10,872 nt of DNA from a virus (Duplodnaviria > Heunggongvirae > Uroviricota > Caudoviricetes), in the IMG/VR virus record IMGVR_UViG_2737471833_000011; one strand, 5' to 3'. Below are positions 1-10,377 of the stretch, one piece after another (the stretch's first letter is position 1; every line of letters starts with the position of its first letter). Below the pieces are notes generated by a model that saw nothing but the letters and a program-made list of their open reading frames with translations, made no database searches and had not been told where the DNA came from. Position numbers and translations under genes: made by a program.

Positions 1-1260
1 ATGCCAAAACTCACAGATATGCAGATCCGCGCATGGATAAAGGCGGGAGACAGATTTGATGGCAAGGCAGACGGCAACGGCCTTTATATTTGCTACCCCA
101 AAAACTACACAGTCCCGTTCTGGCGATTCCGATATAAGCTCGCAGGAAAACAGCGGGCTATGGTTATCGGCTCTTACTCCGAACTGTCACTATCAAAAGC
201 CAGAGAAACAGCAAAAGAGCTGTCAGCCAGAGTTGCTCTTGGCTATGACGTAGCAGCAGAAAAACAGGAACGAAAAGCTGAAGCACTGGCAAAAATGGAG
301 GCTGAGAAAAACGCCATGCGCGTTTCAGATCTGGCCGCCGAATACTTCGAGCGACAGATACTTCCGAGATGGAAACATCCCGATATCCTTCGCCGGAGAA
401 TTGATAAGGATATTAACCCCTGCATTGGGCATATGAAGGTAGAGGACGTTAAGCCACGCCACATTGACGACATGTTGAAAGGTATCGTTGACCGAGGAGC
501 ACCAACGATAGCAACAGATGTATTACGCTGGACACGCCGTATCTTTGACTATGGGATAAAACGCCACGCTCTGGAGATAAACCCTTGTTCAGCGTTTGAA
601 GTATCTGATGCTGGTGGTAAAGAGGTTTCCCGCGACCGTTGGCTAACTCGCGATGAGCTTATCAGGCTATTCGAGGCTATGCGCACCGCAAAAGGATTCA
701 GCCGCCAGAACGAACTGACATTTAAGCTATTGCTGGCACTATGCGTTCGTAAGATGGAGTTATGCGCCGCACGATGGGAAGAGTTTGATTTAGATGGTGC
801 GGTATGGCATTTGCCGGAAGAACGCAGCAAAAACGGAGCCCCTATTGATATACCTCTACCTTCCCCAGCCGTTGAATGGTTGAGAGAGCTACACACCTTT
901 TCATGTAATAGCGCATGGGTGCTTCCGGCCAGGAAGATGCAAAACAGAATGATTCCACATATTCAGGAAAGCACTTTACCCGTAGCACTGGCTAAGGTTC
1001 GCGCCGAAATGCCGGATGTGCCTAATTTCACGATTCACGACTTCCGACGCACCGCACGTACTCATTTAGCAGCGCTGGGCGTTGATCCGGTAGTGGCTGA
1101 AAGATGCCTCAATCACCGCATAAAAGGCGTTGAGGGTATCTATAACCGTCACCAATACTTTGACGAGCGCCGGGCTGCGTTAACACAGTGGGCGGGCTTG
1201 CTGGTGGCTCTGGAGAAGGGCGAAGATTACAACGTGACGCCTATCAGAAAGGCAAAGTAA
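1..1260 (+). CDS. int: P4-type tyrosine integrase / site-specific recombinase
   Basis: 419-aa ORF ending at TAA 1258-1260. C-terminal catalytic-domain signatures: HDFRRTARTH (H-x-x-R box) and a terminal Tyr in GIYNRHQY. Length and layout match phage P4 Int-like recombinases. The window starts at the ATG, so the upstream promoter and att/tRNA are not visible. Confidence 0.93.
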   Translation: MPKLTDMQIRAWIKAGDRFDGKADGNGLYICYPKNYTVPFWRFRYKLAGKQRAMVIGSYSELSLSKARETAKELSARVALGYDVAAEKQERKAEALAKMEAEKNAMRVSDLAAEYFERQILPRWKHPDILRRRIDKDINPCIGHMKVEDVKPRHIDDMLKGIVDRGAPTIATDVLRWTRRIFDYGIKRHALEINPCSAFEVSDAGGKEVSRDRWLTRDELIRLFEAMRTAKGFSRQNELTFKLLLALCVRKMELCAARWEEFDLDGAVWHLPEERSKNGAPIDIPLPSPAVEWLRELHTFSCNSAWVLPARKMQNRMIPHIQESTLPVALAKVRAEMPDVPNFTIHDFRRTARTHLAALGVDPVVAERCLNHRIKGVEGIYNRHQYFDERRAALTQWAGLLVALEKGEDYNVTPIRKAK

Positions 1261-1267
1261 CCGAACA

Positions 1268-1323
1268 GACCGGAACTAGCCCGACGGGGCGAAAAGCGGA
1301 AAGCCTTACCGCCTGTTCCGGTC
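1268..1323. other. 9-bp perfect inverted repeat (GACCGGAAC ... GTTCCGGTC) directly after the int stop
   Basis: Arms at 1268-1276 and 1315-1323 are exact reverse complements, separated by about 38 nt. No convincing U-tract follows, so it is not a classic intrinsic terminator. Confidence 0.3.
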
Positions 1324-1353
1324 ACTCTTTAAGGCAGCGCGAAAGGTTACGCT

Positions 1354-2235
1354 ATGAGCAAATTGTTCCAGTTCAAAAGTTGGTTGACCATAGAGGAAAC
1401 CGCAAACAGGTTAAGCACAACACTCGGTGAAAGGGTATCTGTAGCCGATTGCCTGCAATTGGCTGTAGAAGGCCACATTACAATTTCAGCGATATTGGAC
1501 GAAGGCCGTTACGCTATCGCTGCTCAAGTCATCAAAAACTCGCAACGAAGAGTTTTTGAAAAGTGGATTGTTGAAAATACTAACGAAGGTGCGGTAATTA
1601 GAACTCCTGCCGGTGATGAATTCTATACTAATGAACAATTGGATTATGAATACGAAGATATAGAAAGAGTCAGTGATGTTTTTCGTATTAATCATGGCAT
1701 ATACGATCTACCGATGGTTGGGGCTGAATCTTTAGATGTTATGCACGAGTTTGACCTTTCACGCGACAAGGTTCCCCGTGAATTTCACAACATGGAAGGT
1801 GCTTTCCTCTTAACAGAATTTGGTCTGGTGAATATTCTGAACGCGTTCAATGAATATGCCATCAAGTCAGATGAAAATGGCAAACCTAAACTGTACGACA
1901 AAGAATCACAGAGGTTTGTTGACTTTAGCCTCGATGGTTATCATCCCTTTTTCTATCCTGCTGATGGGCTGGGTAATGTCGAGTTCGTATTCAGAAAAGA
2001 AAATATTGCAGAATTTGAAAAGAAAACACTCAGTGATAACAACAGTCTCCTGAACCTCGATGAAAGCCTTTTACTGCTTGGCGCGGTGCTCAACGCTTTA
2101 AAGAAAGCCGAACCAACTTCTAAAAGGTGGACACAAGAAGCCCTCAAAGCAGAAATGCTGGATAGGGGTTTAAAATTAAGCTCCCGCTTACTGGATGAAT
2201 ATTTCTCATCAGCTAACAAATCTTTTAAATCATAA
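1354..2235 (+). CDS. Hypothetical 293-aa acidic protein, AT-rich cargo gene, function unknown
   Basis: ATG at 1354 with AAAGG 7 nt upstream; stop TAA 2233-2235. Visibly AT-richer than the flanking int and alpA genes (by inspection, not computed). No recognisable catalytic motif. The N-terminal stretch LTIEETANRLSTTLGERVSVADCLQL is loosely HTH-like. Confidence 0.8.
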   Translation: MSKLFQFKSWLTIEETANRLSTTLGERVSVADCLQLAVEGHITISAILDEGRYAIAAQVIKNSQRRVFEKWIVENTNEGAVIRTPAGDEFYTNEQLDYEYEDIERVSDVFRINHGIYDLPMVGAESLDVMHEFDLSRDKVPREFHNMEGAFLLTEFGLVNILNAFNEYAIKSDENGKPKLYDKESQRFVDFSLDGYHPFFYPADGLGNVEFVFRKENIAEFEKKTLSDNNSLLNLDESLLLLGAVLNALKKAEPTSKRWTQEALKAEMLDRGLKLSSRLLDEYFSSANKSFKS

Positions 2236-2243
2236 AGATAATT

Positions 2244-2272
2244 TCGCAACGAAAATCCATTTTTCGTTGCGA
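2244..2272. other. Perfect 12-bp stem / 5-nt loop hairpin between the cargo gene and alpA
   Basis: TCGCAACGAAAA (2244-2255), loop TCCAT, TTTTCGTTGCGA (2261-2272). It begins 9 nt after the cargo stop. No clear T-run follows on the + strand. Confidence 0.45.
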
Positions 2273-2340
2273 TGACATCTAATCCCCCTGCTCACATGAT
2301 TACCGTAACTTCAACAGCTATCACAGGAGTTACAGAACAT

Positions 2341-2559
2341 ATGACAGCACACAAGCCAGCATCATCAGCTATCCCAACAACTGGATACATCCGTCGCTTT
2401 CGCATGCCGGAATTGCTAGGTGTTTCACTGCCTACTATTGATAGATGGGTTAAAAATGGCACTCTTCCACGCCCAGTGAAGCTAACAGATAACGTGACTG
2501 CGTTTGATGCGGTGGAAATTAATAACTGGCTGGCAGAACGTCGGGGAAAGGTGGCCTGA
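2341..2559 (+). CDS. alpA: AlpA/Vis-family helix-turn-helix prophage regulator (excisionase-like)
   Basis: The core MPELLGVSLPTIDRWVKNGTLPRPVKLTDNVTAFDAVEINNWL matches the AlpA/Vis HTH pattern (L..T.YR..K.G.FPKPVKLG...W...E...W). Start chosen at ATG 2341 (AGGAG at 2325-2329); in-frame ATGs at 2272 and 2296 lack an SD. The stop TGA 2557-2559 overlaps the next start (TGATG). Confidence 0.8.
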   Translation: MTAHKPASSAIPTTGYIRRFRMPELLGVSLPTIDRWVKNGTLPRPVKLTDNVTAFDAVEINNWLAERRGKVA

Positions 2560-3002: not shown

Positions 3003-3836
3003 ATGAACATCGAAAAAAGCAGATTAATTTCTGAGGCCGCCCCTCATCTGAACGCCTATCAGGGCACAATTAACGGTAATGAATTTGCCGCAATTGTCCC
3101 GGTTATTTCTGGTCATATAGGTGGGCGTGAAACCAATATTGTTAGCGCAAAAGCGTTACACAAAGCGTTGGGCGTGGGAAAAGACTTCTCTACATGGATC
3201 ACTGATCGCATCTCTGAATATGACTTCACCATTGGTCACGATTACTCAGTCCATAAAACAATTTCCCCAAATTTGGGGAAAAGCCCGAATGGCGCGGCTT
3301 ACAGCAAGATTAAGCACTCTGGCAGACCCGGCAAAGACTATCTGTTAAGTGTCGGAATGGCGAAAGAACTGGCAATGATCGAACGCAATGATCAGGGTCG
3401 CGCTATCCGCCGTTATTTCATCCAGTGCGAGGAAGAATTACAGCGTAGCGTGCCTGAAATCGCCGCCCGCTATCGTCGCCAGCTAAAAGCCCGTATCAGT
3501 GCCGCAAACAACTTTAAGCCAATGTGCGATGCGCTGAATATGGCCCGTGCCGAGATGGGTAAAGCGACGCAGCAGCGCCACTACAGCAACGAGAGCAACA
3601 TGATCGCCCGTATCGTGCTGGGTGGCATGACGGCGAAGCAGTGGGCGCAGGCAAATGGCATTACTGGCGAACCACGGGACAGCATGAACGCAGCACAGCT
3701 TGAACACCTCGCCTATCTCGAAAGCACCAATATCACGTTAATTGATATGGGCATGGAATATGAGCAGCGCAAAGGAGAACTCACCCGCCTGTCGCAACGC
3801 TGGCTCGCTAAACGTCTGGAGGTAAACCATGCGTAA
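3003..3836 (+). CDS. Putative phage antirepressor-like protein (Ant/KilAC/Rha-type motifs), 277 aa
   Basis: GGAG at 2992-2995, 7 nt before the ATG. The segments SAKALHKALGVGKDFSTWITDRI and KDYLLSVGMAKELAMIERNDQGRAIRRYFIQCEEEL resemble phage antirepressor / Rha-type regulators. Family assignment is by eye only. Confidence 0.8.
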   Translation: MNIEKSRLISEAAPHLNAYQGTINGNEFAAIVPVISGHIGGRETNIVSAKALHKALGVGKDFSTWITDRISEYDFTIGHDYSVHKTISPNLGKSPNGAAYSKIKHSGRPGKDYLLSVGMAKELAMIERNDQGRAIRRYFIQCEEELQRSVPEIAARYRRQLKARISAANNFKPMCDALNMARAEMGKATQQRHYSNESNMIARIVLGGMTAKQWAQANGITGEPRDSMNAAQLEHLAYLESTNITLIDMGMEYEQRKGELTRLSQRWLAKRLEVNHA

Positions 3837-4011
3837 CCATAATCCGATGCCGGGAAGCCGTTACAAGGACAGTCACGGGGCTGTAGTGACCGTACAGCGC
3901 GTCGAGCATAACCGAGTGACCTTTTACCGCGAGGGCTATCAGTCGCCATGTGTTCAGCCTTTGGAGAGATTCGTTAATGAGTTCGTGGAGGTGCGCCGTG
4001 ATACTGAATGA
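3829..4011 (+). CDS. Small hypothetical protein, 60 aa
   Basis: ATG 3829 sits inside the CCATGCGTAA junction with the upstream stop; GGAGGT lies 5 nt upstream. Stop TGA 4009-4011. Confidence 0.6.
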   Translation: MRNHNPMPGSRYKDSHGAVVTVQRVEHNRVTFYREGYQSPCVQPLERFVNEFVEVRRDTE

Positions 4012-4915
4012 ACCTGCCGCCCAGAAAGAAGCCTTTAATCTGGCTAGCCTGTTAACAAATGTTAACCCTTACAACCTTATAAAACCAAAGGTCGCGAACG
4101 GCTGCCTGTTATCAATTGTTATGGTTAATGACTTAGCAAAACTTAGCCTGAACCTCACAAAACCTGACATCCACGCACGGGGAATGACGACAAATGATGA
4201 CATTTTAAACCAAGAAATAATCACCTCTAAAAAGCTGATTGTGGGGAATAAATTCCCCCTGCTGGCTGGTGGTATGAACTGGATTGCTACCGTTGTGAAC
4301 CGTTCCACATCGACTTTCGCGACAAATACGCGTGCGCTGGAAGATTTATTAGGGGTCGTTACGCGAGAAGGTGAGTATTCGGAGTCCATAAAAAAGGGCA
4401 GTGCCAGCAGGTCGGACCACCAGCACCGGAAACCGTGTTATATTTCCCCCGCTGGTGTAAATCCACCAGCCGGGCGTGAGAACCTGTTTAATGAGCAAAA
4501 GGCGACACAGACGCGCCCAGCGTCTTTTTTTGTGTCATGCCATCGCGCAACCATACCCAGCGGCAAAGCCCGCACAGTATCTATGGTGGCGCTGGTGGGG
4601 CAGCCGAAAGGCTGGCCGGTTTCCTTTTGCGCCGGTTTTCTCACCCCTGCCAGCGTCACCGCCCCTTATGAGTGTGAGAACTCAGGCGGTGACTCCTTAA
4701 ATTTGCAAAAGGAGGCTGCCATCATGGCTACTACCCCTACCCAAAAACCGCAATTTATCTGGATTATCGCCGCAGTTCGCCGCGATTGCCCGACAATTAC
4801 CGCCAAAATTCATCATATCGCCGCAGAGACTGAGCAGGAAGCACGCCGCTCACTGGCACGCGAGCACGTCACCTTTTTCGCAGGCCGTATCCGTCAGGAG
4901 GTGCGCCATGCGTAA
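3977..4915 (+). CDS. Alternative long reading of a stop-free frame (about 312 aa); may be a real gene, a fused/pseudogenised gene, or partly non-coding
   Basis: The frame is stop-free from 3950 to 4915. Candidate starts are ATG 3977 (GGAG at 3963-3966) and GTG 3998, the latter preceded by GGAGGTGCGCC, the same 11-mer that precedes ATG 4908. Against a single gene: hairpin 4448-4474, terminator-like 4509-4531, inverted repeat 4655-4693 and a strong internal SD+ATG at 4724 all fall inside it. Mutually exclusive with the 4724-4915 call. Confidence 0.35.
   Translation: MSSWRCAVILNEPAAQKEAFNLASLLTNVNPYNLIKPKVANGCLLSIVMVNDLAKLSLNLTKPDIHARGMTTNDDILNQEIITSKKLIVGNKFPLLAGGMNWIATVVNRSTSTFATNTRALEDLLGVVTREGEYSESIKKGSASRSDHQHRKPCYISPAGVNPPAGRENLFNEQKATQTRPASFFVSCHRATIPSGKARTVSMVALVGQPKGWPVSFCAGFLTPASVTAPYECENSGGDSLNLQKEAAIMATTPTQKPQFIWIIAAVRRDCPTITAKIHHIAAETEQEARRSLAREHVTFFAGRIRQEVRHA
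4509..4531 (+). terminator. Candidate rho-independent terminator (6-bp stem AGACGC/GCGTCT, loop GCCCA, then T7)
   Basis: Stem 4509-4514 pairs with 4520-4525, followed by the T-run 4525-4531. The short stem makes it weak to moderate. It is orientation-specific to the + strand. Confidence 0.4.
4655..4693. promoter_or_regulatory. 9-bp perfect inverted repeat GTCACCGCC / GGCGGTGAC with a nested 5-bp stem, 15 nt upstream of a strong SD
   Basis: Arms at 4655-4663 and 4685-4693. Inner stem TGAGT (4669-4673) / ACTCA (4680-4684). The SD AAGGAGG is at 4709-4715. Could be an operator or an RNA structure gating translation. Confidence 0.35.
4724..4915 (+). CDS. Small hypothetical protein, 63 aa (short alternative to the long frame)
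   Basis: Strong SD AAGGAGG (4709-4715) 8 nt before ATG 4724. Product MATTPTQKPQFIWIIAAVRRDCPTITAKIHHIAAETEQEARRSLAREHVTFFAGRIRQEVRHA. Stop TAA 4913-4915 lies inside the CCATGCGTAA junction. Confidence 0.5.
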   Translation: MATTPTQKPQFIWIIAAVRRDCPTITAKIHHIAAETEQEARRSLAREHVTFFAGRIRQEVRHA

Positions 4916-9084: not shown

Positions 9085-9332
9085 TATCCCTACTGCCCTA
9101 CTAAAAACGAGACGAGGCCAGACGTAGCAAGGCTTTAAACTAGGTAGGGATATATATTTTTATCCCTACTTATCCCTACATATCCCTACCAAATAAAACA
9201 GGCAGTAAAATGCCGTTGAAGTGATTTAGTAGGGATAAGTAGGGTTATGTAGGGCAACAAAATTGAATGCCTACCAGTCTGAAAGCCTTGCCATTCGTGG
9301 CATGAGCCAGTTAGTAGGGATTGGTAGGGATA
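9085..9332. repeat. Iteron array (putative origin of replication / crr-like region): at least 10 copies of the GTAGGGA / TCCCTAC core
   Basis: TATCCCTAC at 9085, 9161, 9171 and 9181, the last three as 10-bp tandem units. The complement GTAGGG(A/T/C) at 9144, 9229, 9239, 9249 (another 10-bp tandem triplet), 9314 and 9324. Degenerate copies at 9094 and 9271. Flanked by a C5/G8 hairpin (9336-9365) and an AT-rich stretch (about 9431-9520). Sits immediately 3' of the primase gene. Confidence 0.75.
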
Positions 9333-9405
9333 TTACACCCCCAAAAAGATTCTATGGGGGGGGTGAGCTTAAAACGAAACTTGTCAAAACTTGACACACA
9401 GAACG

Positions 9406-9438
9406 ATGCCACCAGCTACTGAGCGGCGGCATTTTTTT
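9406..9438 (+). terminator. Possible intrinsic terminator (imperfect stem ATGCCaCC / GGcGGCAT + T7); may instead be part of the origin's AT-rich unwinding element
   Basis: ATGCC (9406-9410) pairs with GGCAT (9428-9432); the inner pairs have a mismatch. T-run 9432-9438. Confidence 0.3.
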
Positions 9439-9494
9439 GTGCTATTTGTTTCATATTTTGCAATTACGGTGATAAATATTGCTATTTGTGAAAC

Positions 9495-9500
9495 TATAAT
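9495..9500 (+). promoter_or_regulatory. Consensus -10 hexamer TATAAT upstream of the RHH-like gene
   Basis: Perfect TATAAT 33 nt upstream of ATG 9533. No good -35 at 17 bp. An upstream TGTCAA-N3-TTGACA palindrome (9382-9396) and a direct repeat GCTATTTGT (9441-9449, 9481-9489) are candidate operator elements. Confidence 0.35.
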
Positions 9501-9532
9501 AACTGTTGTTTTATACAGTTCTAAGGGGCGTT

Positions 9533-9706
9533 ATGGCTATTTCAGTAAAGCCGGTATTGATAAGTGAGAAGCAAATGGAAGCGATAAAGAAAATTCAGGA
9601 GGAGCAGCGTAAAAAATCAGAGGTAGGAGTTGCGCCAACGATCCACGAAATTGCTCGGGGATTAATGGATAAGGCGCTAGCCTCACTGGCAAGCGAGGGC
9701 GCGTAA
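9533..9706 (+). CDS. Small ribbon-helix-helix-like DNA-binding protein, 57 aa
   Basis: ATG 9533 with AAGGGG at 9523-9528; the track's 9506 start is a TTG upstream of that SD. The pattern PVLISEKQMEAIKKIQEE ... PTIHEIARGLMDKALASL is consistent with a beta-strand plus two helices (RHH/CopG/Arc-like). Stop TAA 9704-9706 overlaps the next ATG (TAATG). Confidence 0.65.
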   Translation: MAISVKPVLISEKQMEAIKKIQEEQRKKSEVGVAPTIHEIARGLMDKALASLASEGA

Positions 9707-10377
9707 TGGGCGCCATTCACCAGATATATGAGCATGAAATGTTCTATAACTGGATAGGTGATGGTAAACGATGTGTAGCATTCCACGAAGCGGGACATGC
9801 GGTAGCTGCATGGCTTATTCGCTTAGATATACAGGTTATCGCCGTTATGGATGAATACGGTTACGTTGCTGGCGAACATGTACATGAGGCCAAGTGTTTG
9901 GGCGTTGTTAAACACAGCATAATTCACAGCCACGATCTCGGGCGTTTGCGGGATAGTAAATCTGGTGTAGTTGGGCAGAATGGTAAAGTTATCCCTTTCA
10001 TACGTTACTATGCGGATGGTATAAAGCGCGATGCAAAAAAGGCCGCTTTTGTATCCCTCGCCGGACCAGTAAGCGAAGCCCTTTACGAAAACAACGATAT
10101 TTTCAACAAAAAGTATTCGCTACCTCATCGCTATGACATGGCTAACGTAAATGACATGCTCGATTTAATCTGCGCTACAGATAAGCAAATTAACAGGGAG
10201 TTAATGCTTTCTAAACTCGTTGAAAAGACCAAAGCCCTCATGGCTCAATACTGGTATGAAGTAGAAAAAATAGCGCATTTGCTTGAACGGGATAGCATTG
10301 TGAATGGTCGAAATGTTAGCTCGTTAATTGGCATCAACGTCATAGACCGGGCAACGCCATTTTTGCTGGTGGAATAA
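9706..10377 (+). CDS. Stand-alone HEXXH zinc metallopeptidase, FtsH (M41)-like protease domain without an AAA+ module, 223 aa
   Basis: GAGGG SD 6 nt before ATG 9706. Exact FtsH-type motif FHEAGHAV at nt 9781-9804. Downstream SLAGPVSEALYE and MANVNDM resemble the FtsH third-ligand Glu region and the GASNDI motif. No Walker motifs. AT-richer than the primase gene. Confidence 0.85.
   Translation: MGAIHQIYEHEMFYNWIGDGKRCVAFHEAGHAVAAWLIRLDIQVIAVMDEYGYVAGEHVHEAKCLGVVKHSIIHSHDLGRLRDSKSGVVGQNGKVIPFIRYYADGIKRDAKKAAFVSLAGPVSEALYENNDIFNKKYSLPHRYDMANVNDMLDLICATDKQINRELMLSKLVEKTKALMAQYWYEVEKIAHLLERDSIVNGRNVSSLIGINVIDRATPFLLVE

Follow-up and report, generated by a model that had tools for sequence, protein, structure and literature searches.

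A gene family bound to the int-alpA interval of Gram-negative phage satellites: a possible exchangeable adaptor of the int/alpA switch

Activation of Gram-negative phage-inducible chromosomal islands (PICIs) goes through AlpA, their master activator (PMC6092414, PMC11773190), and they are not de-repressed as are islands controlled by the repressor Stl (PMC6092414). Helper phages induce alpA in these islands by an unknown route (PMC6092414). Helper induction, packaging and transfer have been shown for members such as EcCIMP1 and EcCICFT073 (PMC11773190, PMC6092414), which are relatives of the island described here. Variable accessory slots are already known from phage satellites. The hotspot of P4 sits between psu and int, adjoining cos (PMC9122126), and for PICIs, earlier reports put the defence genes in the att-int interval or at the 3' end, not between int and alpA (PMC13586616, PMC11364771). 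We analysed a viral stretch of 10,872 nucleotides (nt), ~10.9 kb, hereafter the window (IMG/VR record IMGVR_UViG_2737471833_000011), in which the interval between int and alpA, hereafter the slot, is filled by an open reading frame (ORF) that we call X (Table 1). X belongs to a large protein family that keeps this position across distant bacteria. We tentatively propose that X is a non-enzymatic, exchangeable, specificity-carrying adaptor of the int/alpA switch.

The carrier of X is a Gram-negative PICI-like island inserted at yicC. It encodes, in order, int, X, alpA, a protein of 143 amino acids (aa), an AntA antirepressor, DUF4222, an 'ash/icd' region, small ORFs, a P4-type primase, variable genes and PerC. 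Int, AlpA, AntA and the primase (with Zn-ribbon, Toprim and D5_N domains) are all encoded on the + strand, and no phage structural genes were found in the window. This unidirectional int-alpA-primase arrangement without structural or lysis genes is that of Gram-negative PICIs, and the relatives share the order. In E. coli and Yersinia, yicC is the immediate upstream neighbour of every island copy that we examined, as expected for a specific attachment site, and reference PICIs in yicC have been mentioned (bioRxiv 10.1101/2022.07.18.500453). EcCIMP1, EcCICFT073 and EcCIEDL933 likewise carry int, alpA, an antirepressor gene, an Ash region with immunity RNAs, a P4-type primase and PerC (PMC11773190; bioRxiv 10.1101/2022.07.18.500453). 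They differ in the slot. The int-alpA gene of EcCIMP1 encodes a tiny protein mis-annotated as UvrB and has no phenotype (PMC11773190), and X-family genes are not described in the papers on the three islands (PMC11773190; bioRxiv 10.1101/2022.07.18.500453). The RefSeq accessions of the slot proteins found no mention in the literature searched.

X is a real gene and not a chance ORF, because it has many homologs, a ratio of nonsynonymous to synonymous substitution rates (dN/dS) of 0.14 and a confident AlphaFold model (mean predicted local distance difference test score, pLDDT, 88.3). The dN/dS value, obtained against a 95%-identical Enterobacter copy, indicates purifying selection. In E. coli genomes, the NCBI annotation pipeline PGAP calls exactly this ORF and labels its product a hypothetical protein (WP_001705540.1), and a ribosome-binding site (RBS), AAAGG, lies 7 nt 5' of the ATG. 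The GC content of X (0.407 overall, 0.391 at third codon positions) is the lowest among the genes of the window, compared with 0.499 for int, 0.489 for alpA and 0.551 for the primase. The whole protein is acidic, with a net charge of -15 and an isoelectric point (pI) of 4.9. No family in the Pfam, PHROGs, NCBIfam and PADLOC libraries matched X, and PADLOC-DB v2 returned nothing for X, its alleles or a Neptunomonas homolog at E values up to 0.1. Library and structure searches for an enzymatic fold or motif, or for an effector domain, found none in X. A preliminary description of this DNA had read X as a complete gene with a Shine-Dalgarno sequence, poorer in GC than int and alpA, encoding an acidic protein with no recognisable enzymatic motif, and all of this is borne out. 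It had also called X an orphan that stands alone between int and a downstream hairpin. Neither statement survives, as X has a large family and the 93-nt int-X spacer carries an RNA of the Rfam int-alpA family.

The family is both wide and bound to its position. A word-index search recovered 54 homologous clusters throughout Enterobacterales. An exhaustive profile search recovered 2,209 representative clusters at E ≤ 0.001, 390 of them at E ≤ 1e-30. We assembled 51 loci from one-genome-per-species contigs of Gamma-, Beta- and Deltaproteobacteria. Of the 43 evaluable loci, 31 have an integrase gene immediately 5' of the X homolog and on its strand, and most of the others have one elsewhere within the fetched flanks. 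On the other side, about 34 of 49 loci have an AlpA-like gene 30-220 nt past the X homolog. The int-X-alpA order is kept even in Neptunomonas, where the X protein is only 25% identical. Among the other island genes, the 143-aa protein, AntA, the primase and PerC, none travels consistently with X. The family has no match in 50,697 phage genomes and a single match in 72,556 plasmids. Since the other island genes are not linked to X and phages and plasmids lack the family but for that one match, the conserved unit is specifically int-X-alpA. YfjH, encoded between intA and alpA in the CP4-57 element of E. coli K-12, was considered as a relative of X and rejected; it is unrelated and lies on the opposite strand. 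The int-X-alpA unit can also sit inside a larger recombinase-rich module. Several loci of our set from Proteobacteria of marine and environmental origin (L027-L029, L031, L034, L035, L042, L051 and L054) carry one more integrase-like gene (~365 aa) behind X and alpA, on the same strand and ~0.8-1.6 kb downstream of X.

Within E. coli the slot is highly polymorphic. In our survey set of 5,426 complete genomes, int is present in about 321. Every inspected island has exactly one gene between int and alpA, and this gene is of at least four kinds, family A (37 genomes), B1 (77), B2 (41) and C (112). The 37 genomes with X DNA comprise 21 that match at ≥99.9% and carry the X allele, 13 at ~68%, and 3 that match only the last 172 nt. 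Family A thus accounts for ~11% of E. coli islands of the yicC type. Its alleles A1 (X itself), A2 (60% identical) and A3 (54% identical) all encode 293 aa. B1 (321 aa) and B2 (316 aa) have only a 74-residue C-terminus in common, and C has 216 aa. All slot genes are AT-rich (GC 0.36-0.43). The B1 protein has a marginal PADLOC match only, to PDC-S31 (E = 0.002). Hidden Markov models built from 49 and from 191 family A members detected neither the B and C slot proteins nor YfjH.

X behaves as a cassette that is exchanged between islands, because a 100% identical copy occurs where the accompanying int shows 92% and the primase 46% identity. Homology between islands ends at position 1241, 1248 or 1357 of the window and picks up again at 2305 or 2369, and the flanks of the slot are 92-98% identical. 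These breakpoints indicate that the exchanged unit consists of X, the downstream hairpin and the region just 5' of alpA. In sister islands, X proteins are 55-60% identical while int is 91-93% and antA 94-96% identical. X is the fastest-diverging gene between such islands, and alpA is often the second. Recombination has reached into the gene as well. Compared with the Enterobacter sichuanensis copy (L012), residues 56-114 of X (window 1519-1695) have a synonymous divergence (dS) of 0.80, whereas the rest of the gene mostly has 0.03-0.07, with 0.22 over residues 1-55. Residues 56-114 thus form an intragenic recombination patch, which coincides with one of two variable subdomains.

The slot therefore behaves much as the preliminary description had expected of a variable site holding acquired, cargo-like genes. 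Alignment of the homologous islands, one of the checks it had named, finds a variable slot with conserved flanks, as in the variable-cargo hotspots of satellites, where unrelated genes occupy one position, with the caveat that the A and B occupants share a homologous N-terminal domain (see below). The likeness to the P4 and PICI hotspots (psu-int/cos; att-int, pri-adjacent and 3' regions) is that unrelated AT-rich cassettes interchange at one site and that many of the occupants are unannotated (PMC9122126, PMC13586616, PMC11364771). The claimed equivalence with the P4 hotspot holds only loosely, as that hotspot is psu-int, next to cos. The slot of X also differs in that its A and B occupants share a leader and an N-terminal domain, and in that the family does not circulate in phages, other mobile elements or defence islands, given the 0/50,697 and 1/72,556 counts. 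The preliminary description had named as evidence against cargo a synteny across essentially all related elements with a known housekeeping role, or a lack of phenotype together with purifying selection typical of a core regulator. The int-X-alpA synteny is indeed deep and X is under purifying selection, but X is present in only the ~11% of islands noted above and has no known housekeeping role.

To our knowledge, no function has been assigned to the Rfam int-alpA RNA, which Rfam lists as a candidate small RNA named after its flanking genes. The element in the int-X spacer is a full-length member that matches positions 1-71 of the RF02996 model. In every instance examined here, the RNA ends ~19 nt 5' of the start codon of an X-family or family B gene. 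This holds for the E. coli alleles, Yersinia and Neptunomonas, and the RNA also precedes a B1 gene. The B2 and C genes, which adjoin the end of int or overlap it, lack the RNA. In viral or satellite contigs, the RNA core had five independent exact matches; an ORF follows at the same spacing in all four evaluable cases, one belonging to family A and three being family-B-like. Compensatory changes are present in the alignment in all three Rfam stems. Downstream of the Rfam model, a small hairpin presents the RBS of X in its loop. Its stem is GCG/CGC in the window, GCGT/ACGC in the E. coli relatives and CAC/GTG in Neptunomonas. This hairpin forms helix 4 of our own covariance model, with compensatory changes in 4/4 pairs and 94% of cells paired. 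The model matches at least 20 of the 51 loci, including those of Nitrosomonas, Advenella and Polaromonas, and with few exceptions the match stops exactly where the start codon of X lies. Over the leader as a whole, 21/21 pairs are changed on both sides and 94.5% of cells are paired, compared with 37-40% when the partners are slid, in an alignment fitted to the covariance model itself.

The fixed distance to the start codon and the covarying RBS hairpin suggest that the int-alpA RNA is a cis-acting leader or intercistronic element and not a free small RNA. No sigma-70-like promoter was predicted between int and X. The simplest source of X expression is therefore the int transcript, through the structured element. 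A U-run that follows P1 in the Rfam consensus would fit a conditional terminator.

The AlphaFold model of X has three parts, a beta-alpha-alpha-beta domain at residues ~8-48, a beta-rich part at ~50-230 and three helices at 235-292. Conservation among 191 diverse members is highest over the first 50 residues, followed by two motifs, G115-x2-D-L-x-M-x-G-x-E-x-L-D128 and Y201-P-A-x-G-L...V212-x-R214; the variable regions are residues 60-110, 170-200 and the C-terminal tail. The N-domain has a net charge of -3 (family median -1) with invariant E26 and D32, the core has a net charge of -10, and only the tail is basic (pI 9.2). A Foldseek search of X against the PDB gave no significant match, and the beta-rich acidic core, as modelled, appears to have no solved relative. 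The N-domain models of X and of B match the excisionase Xis (4j2n), BldC and the N-domains of MerR proteins; that of X also matches the AlpA-family excisionase 8c3t and RdfS (8dgl).

We compared X with such winged-helix proteins, namely Xis of phage Pukovnik (4j2n), GIsul2 (8c3t), RdfS (8dgl), BldC (6amk) and small-terminase N-domains (7lxs). The N-domain model has the winged-helix fold of ~50-60 residues that is typical of the Xis/AlpA family. However, X is not a small basic DNA-binding protein. It has 293 aa with two extra domains, and its N-domain is neutral to acidic; an invariant Asp opens the 'recognition' helix, whereas the AlpA of the same island has a strongly basic pI (Table 1). The Pfam families Phage_AlpA and HTH_17 do not match X, although the neighbouring alpA is matched. 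Because the N-domain is non-basic, it is doubtful that it binds an ordinary operator, and it could equally well bind protein or RNA.

Families A and B are related through this domain. A whole-profile comparison aligned their N-termini only. With hhalign profiles of single domains, the N-domains gave a probability of 77% (E = 2e-5) with their invariant Asp, Ala, Gly and Ser/Cys positions in register, and the middle parts, C-terminal parts and cross-controls all gave <1%. The A and B models share the three-part layout. On the basis of this domain-level comparison, A and B combine a shared leader and a homologous N-domain with unrelated bodies; body and tail vary from family to family and are shuffled by recombination.

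The segment between X and alpA contains further signals (Table 1). The perfect 12-bp hairpin, described earlier as insulating X from the alpA operon, is confirmed. It starts eight bases past the X stop codon and has no T-tract on the + strand. At the same place, the B1 and B2 cassettes of L004 and L005 have canonical T-tract terminators. In L007 (A3) the pairing is kept by a G-U change, and in L003 there is one mismatch. The T-tract terminators and the retained pairing make a terminator or insulator that ends the int-X transcript and travels with the cassette the best and a probable reading of this hairpin. A palindromic operator was considered and rejected on the same observations. A candidate sigma-70 promoter for alpA falls inside the swapped segment (right breakpoints 2305 and 2369). 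An 8-bp hairpin sequesters the alpA RBS in minimum free energy (MFE) folds, and an equivalent GTAAC...GTTAC hairpin is found in 6/6 islands compared, with all types of slot gene. This hairpin may provide translational control of the master activator. Its loop holds AGCTATCA, and the same string occurs twice upstream of int.

Combining these data, X may be an adaptor that stays with its island and evolves under conflict, rather than a core gene for housekeeping or a defence cassette that moves freely; we hold this view tentatively and at less than an even chance. Through its conserved N-domain, X would dock to a fixed partner in the island, with Int, AlpA and the leader RNA or its DNA as candidates. 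Recognition of a changing target would fall to the variable beta-rich body, and this target would most plausibly be part of a helper or competing phage. As output, X would modulate the int/alpA switch (excision or induction) or interfere with the phage by binding, not by catalysis. We favour the adaptor reading since it fits both the cargo-like observations and those that bind X to int and alpA. The int-X-alpA synteny, the absence of the family from phages, the conservation of the leader, the N-domain homology of A and B and the negative searches for an enzymatic fold or motif count for it, as does the fact that X diverges fast yet is under purifying selection, with its variability concentrated in subdomains.

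Several observations weigh against the proposed adaptor. The non-basic N-domain with its invariant E26 and D32 makes classical DNA binding doubtful. B2 and C have no leader RNA, and C has no detectable similarity to the N-domain. Allele-specific operator-like repeats were searched for in the P_int region, the int-X spacer and the X-alpA spacer, and none were found; the region 5' of int follows the int lineage and not the slot allele. That the alpA promoter region lies in the swapped segment may simply reflect recombination in conserved flanks. The islands probably already carry RNA-based immunity, isrK and C4. EcCIMP1, with only its tiny unrelated slot gene, is still helper-induced via alpA (PMC11773190), so the basic PICI cycle does not depend on X.

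A more specific version of the adaptor, which we consider improbable, is that X and family B, set apart by their common excisionase-like N-domain and int-alpA RNA leader, act as the so far missing regulators through which Gram-negative PICI-like islands sense their helper. The body would capture a phage protein, and the N-domain, sitting on the leader RNA, Int or AlpA, would turn this capture into alpA activation and excision. The int-alpA RNA would then be the autoregulatory leader of the sensor, not a trans-acting small RNA. The closest functional parallel is with the Stl/Rpr repressors of Staphylococcus aureus pathogenicity islands (SaPIs) and Gram-positive PICIs, which are likewise encoded beside int, co-transcribed with it, and divergent between similar islands. 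In the model of Stl, a conserved docking domain is combined with a variable part that recognises a helper-phage protein (PMC6092414), and a similar division is proposed for X. However, Stl is divergent from the xis/rep operon and all-helical with a basic operator-binding helix-turn-helix, whereas X is co-directional with alpA and beta-rich, with a non-basic N-domain and no operator found. There is no sequence or fold match between X and Stl, and the resemblance is a functional analogy only.

The alternative that competes best with the adaptor, though we judge it somewhat unlikely, is the one favoured by the preliminary description, in which X is a stand-alone, single-gene, non-enzymatic anti-phage or anti-defence cargo in an int-alpA recombination hotspot. 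X would be expressed from the quiescent island and block a phage component by binding, like Tai-type or packaging-interference proteins, and int and alpA would be only homology arms for exchange. The clean exchange of at least four kinds of slot gene among near-identical islands agrees with this, as do the lowest GC in the window, the gene's own probable terminator and the mosaic evolution of the variable subdomains of X. The precedents are also favourable. Six of eight P4 hotspot loci of unknown function were phage-protective (PMC13586616), PICIs have several immune hotspots and non-enzymatic Tai proteins (PMC11364771), and EcCIMP1 confers an unexplained superinfection immunity without a PADLOC or DefenseFinder match (PMC11773190). 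Nevertheless, our searches gave no direct support for a defence or anti-defence role, as X has no PADLOC match and no effector domain. The known PICI and P4 hotspots sit elsewhere (PMC9122126, PMC13586616). The dedicated, deeply conserved structured leader, common to family B, and the excisionase-type domain, which is the most conserved part of X and is typical of integration modules, also argue against a stand-alone role. Most defence genes move among many contexts, and the X family is confined to int-X-alpA, absent from phages and nearly so from plasmids.

It is rather improbable that X is an accessory factor of the integrase module, acting in recombination or maintenance without any phage recognition. 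Such a factor could be an inhibitor of premature excision, a directionality co-factor or an anti-activator, autoregulated via the int-alpA RNA, and its diversity would reflect co-evolution with int/alpA partners together with drift. The conserved trio, the operon-like arrangement with int, the purifying selection and a leader suggestive of feedback control would all be expected, and the N-domain fold matches recombination directionality factors (Xis 4j2n, 8c3t and RdfS 8dgl). The evolution of X fits less well. X is uncoupled from int, since an identical X occurs with a 92% identical int and a 60% identical X with a 93% identical int, and if the whole protein had one fixed mechanistic partner, slot bodies without detectable similarity would be difficult to explain. 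In addition, related functional PICIs lack X (PMC11773190). It is extremely improbable that X is a decoy with a core from a phage major capsid protein that disturbs helper capsid assembly, as the sole match of the family profile among PDB sequences, to T7 major capsid protein gp10A (E = 0.027; residues 54-182, window 1513-1899), is borderline and falls in the most variable part of the family, and structure searches gave no support.

Table 1. Positions in the window of X, its flanking signals and selected island features
Feature	Position	Strand	Details
int	1..1260	+	P4-type tyrosine integrase (Arm-DNA-bind_3 + Phage_int_M + Phage_integrase); Pfam E 1e-19 to 1e-17
int-alpA RNA motif (Rfam RF02996)	1269..1335	+	P1 encloses two hairpins; 66.1 bits vs gathering threshold 35.8
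Small RBS-presenting hairpin	1337..1352	+	X RBS AAAGG (1342-1346) in loop; outside the Rfam model
X	1354..2235	+	293 aa, ATG start; acidic three-part protein
Perfect 12-bp hairpin	2244..2272	+	2244-2255 pairs with 2261-2272; 5-nt loop
Candidate sigma-70 promoter for alpA	2272..2300	+	ATGACA, 17-nt spacer, CATGAT; 9/12 consensus matches, weak
8-bp hairpin (GTAACTTC/GGAGTTAC)	2305..2333	+	Sequesters alpA RBS GGAG (2326-2329); MFE folds
alpA	2341..2559	+	72 aa, pI 10.5; Pfam Phage_AlpA; PGAP start site
isrK RNA gene	4451-4530		Inside ORF 3950-4915; Rfam, 56.7 bits
C4 antisense RNA gene	4579-4666		Inside ORF 3950-4915; Rfam, 79.6 bits

Other parts of the island were also inspected. In the yicC-int gap (190 nt; L001 11806-12000 and equivalents in L002-L007), there are four TGTACA-centred repeats (GTGTACAT / ATGTACA). 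They occur as two sequence variants that track the int lineage and not the slot allele, and are likely arm-type or regulator binding sites. The ORF of the 143-aa protein (2559-2990) overlaps the alpA stop codon (ATGA), and because of this overlap the protein is probably translationally coupled to alpA. Some RefSeq records call it a 'PM1773 family protein'; it has no NCBIfam, Pfam or PHROG match. In the AntA-domain protein (3003-3836), residues 166-266 in the C-terminal half match the PADLOC candidate family PDC-S22 (E = 2.5e-11). The region of isrK and C4 probably encodes an RNA immunity system of the P1/P4 type. The long ORF around them is annotated by PGAP as 'ash family protein' or 'Icd-like', and this annotation is doubtful. 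Downstream of the primase, a second AT-rich stretch (9150-10377, GC 0.39-0.44) corresponds to the pri-adjacent accessory region described for PICIs. There, ORF 9506-9706 (66 aa) overlaps ORF 9706-10377 (223 aa). The 223-aa protein has a zinc-protease-like motif, FHEAGHAV, with only weak M41/FtsH matches and no PADLOC match. In related islands, the region downstream of the primase holds DUF2824 and P22-like ejection proteins (L001) or other genes (L002).

Relative to the literature searched, the int-alpA position of the slot and the existence of a family of >2,000 clusters tied to this position are new. So is the coupling of X to the int-alpA RNA and, by the shared N-domain, to a second family. 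If the proposed adaptor role is true, a family of >2,000 clusters without a name, a Pfam model or a solved fold would gain a role as the middle of the int-X-alpA trio. The int-alpA RNA would be assigned as the leader of X and of a second family that shares its N-domain. X, which is swappable, non-enzymatic, island-bound and located between int and alpA, would be a direct candidate for helper sensing in Gram-negative PICIs. Should X instead prove to act in defence on its own, the defence repertoire of phage satellites would gain both a new non-enzymatic system and a new hotspot position.

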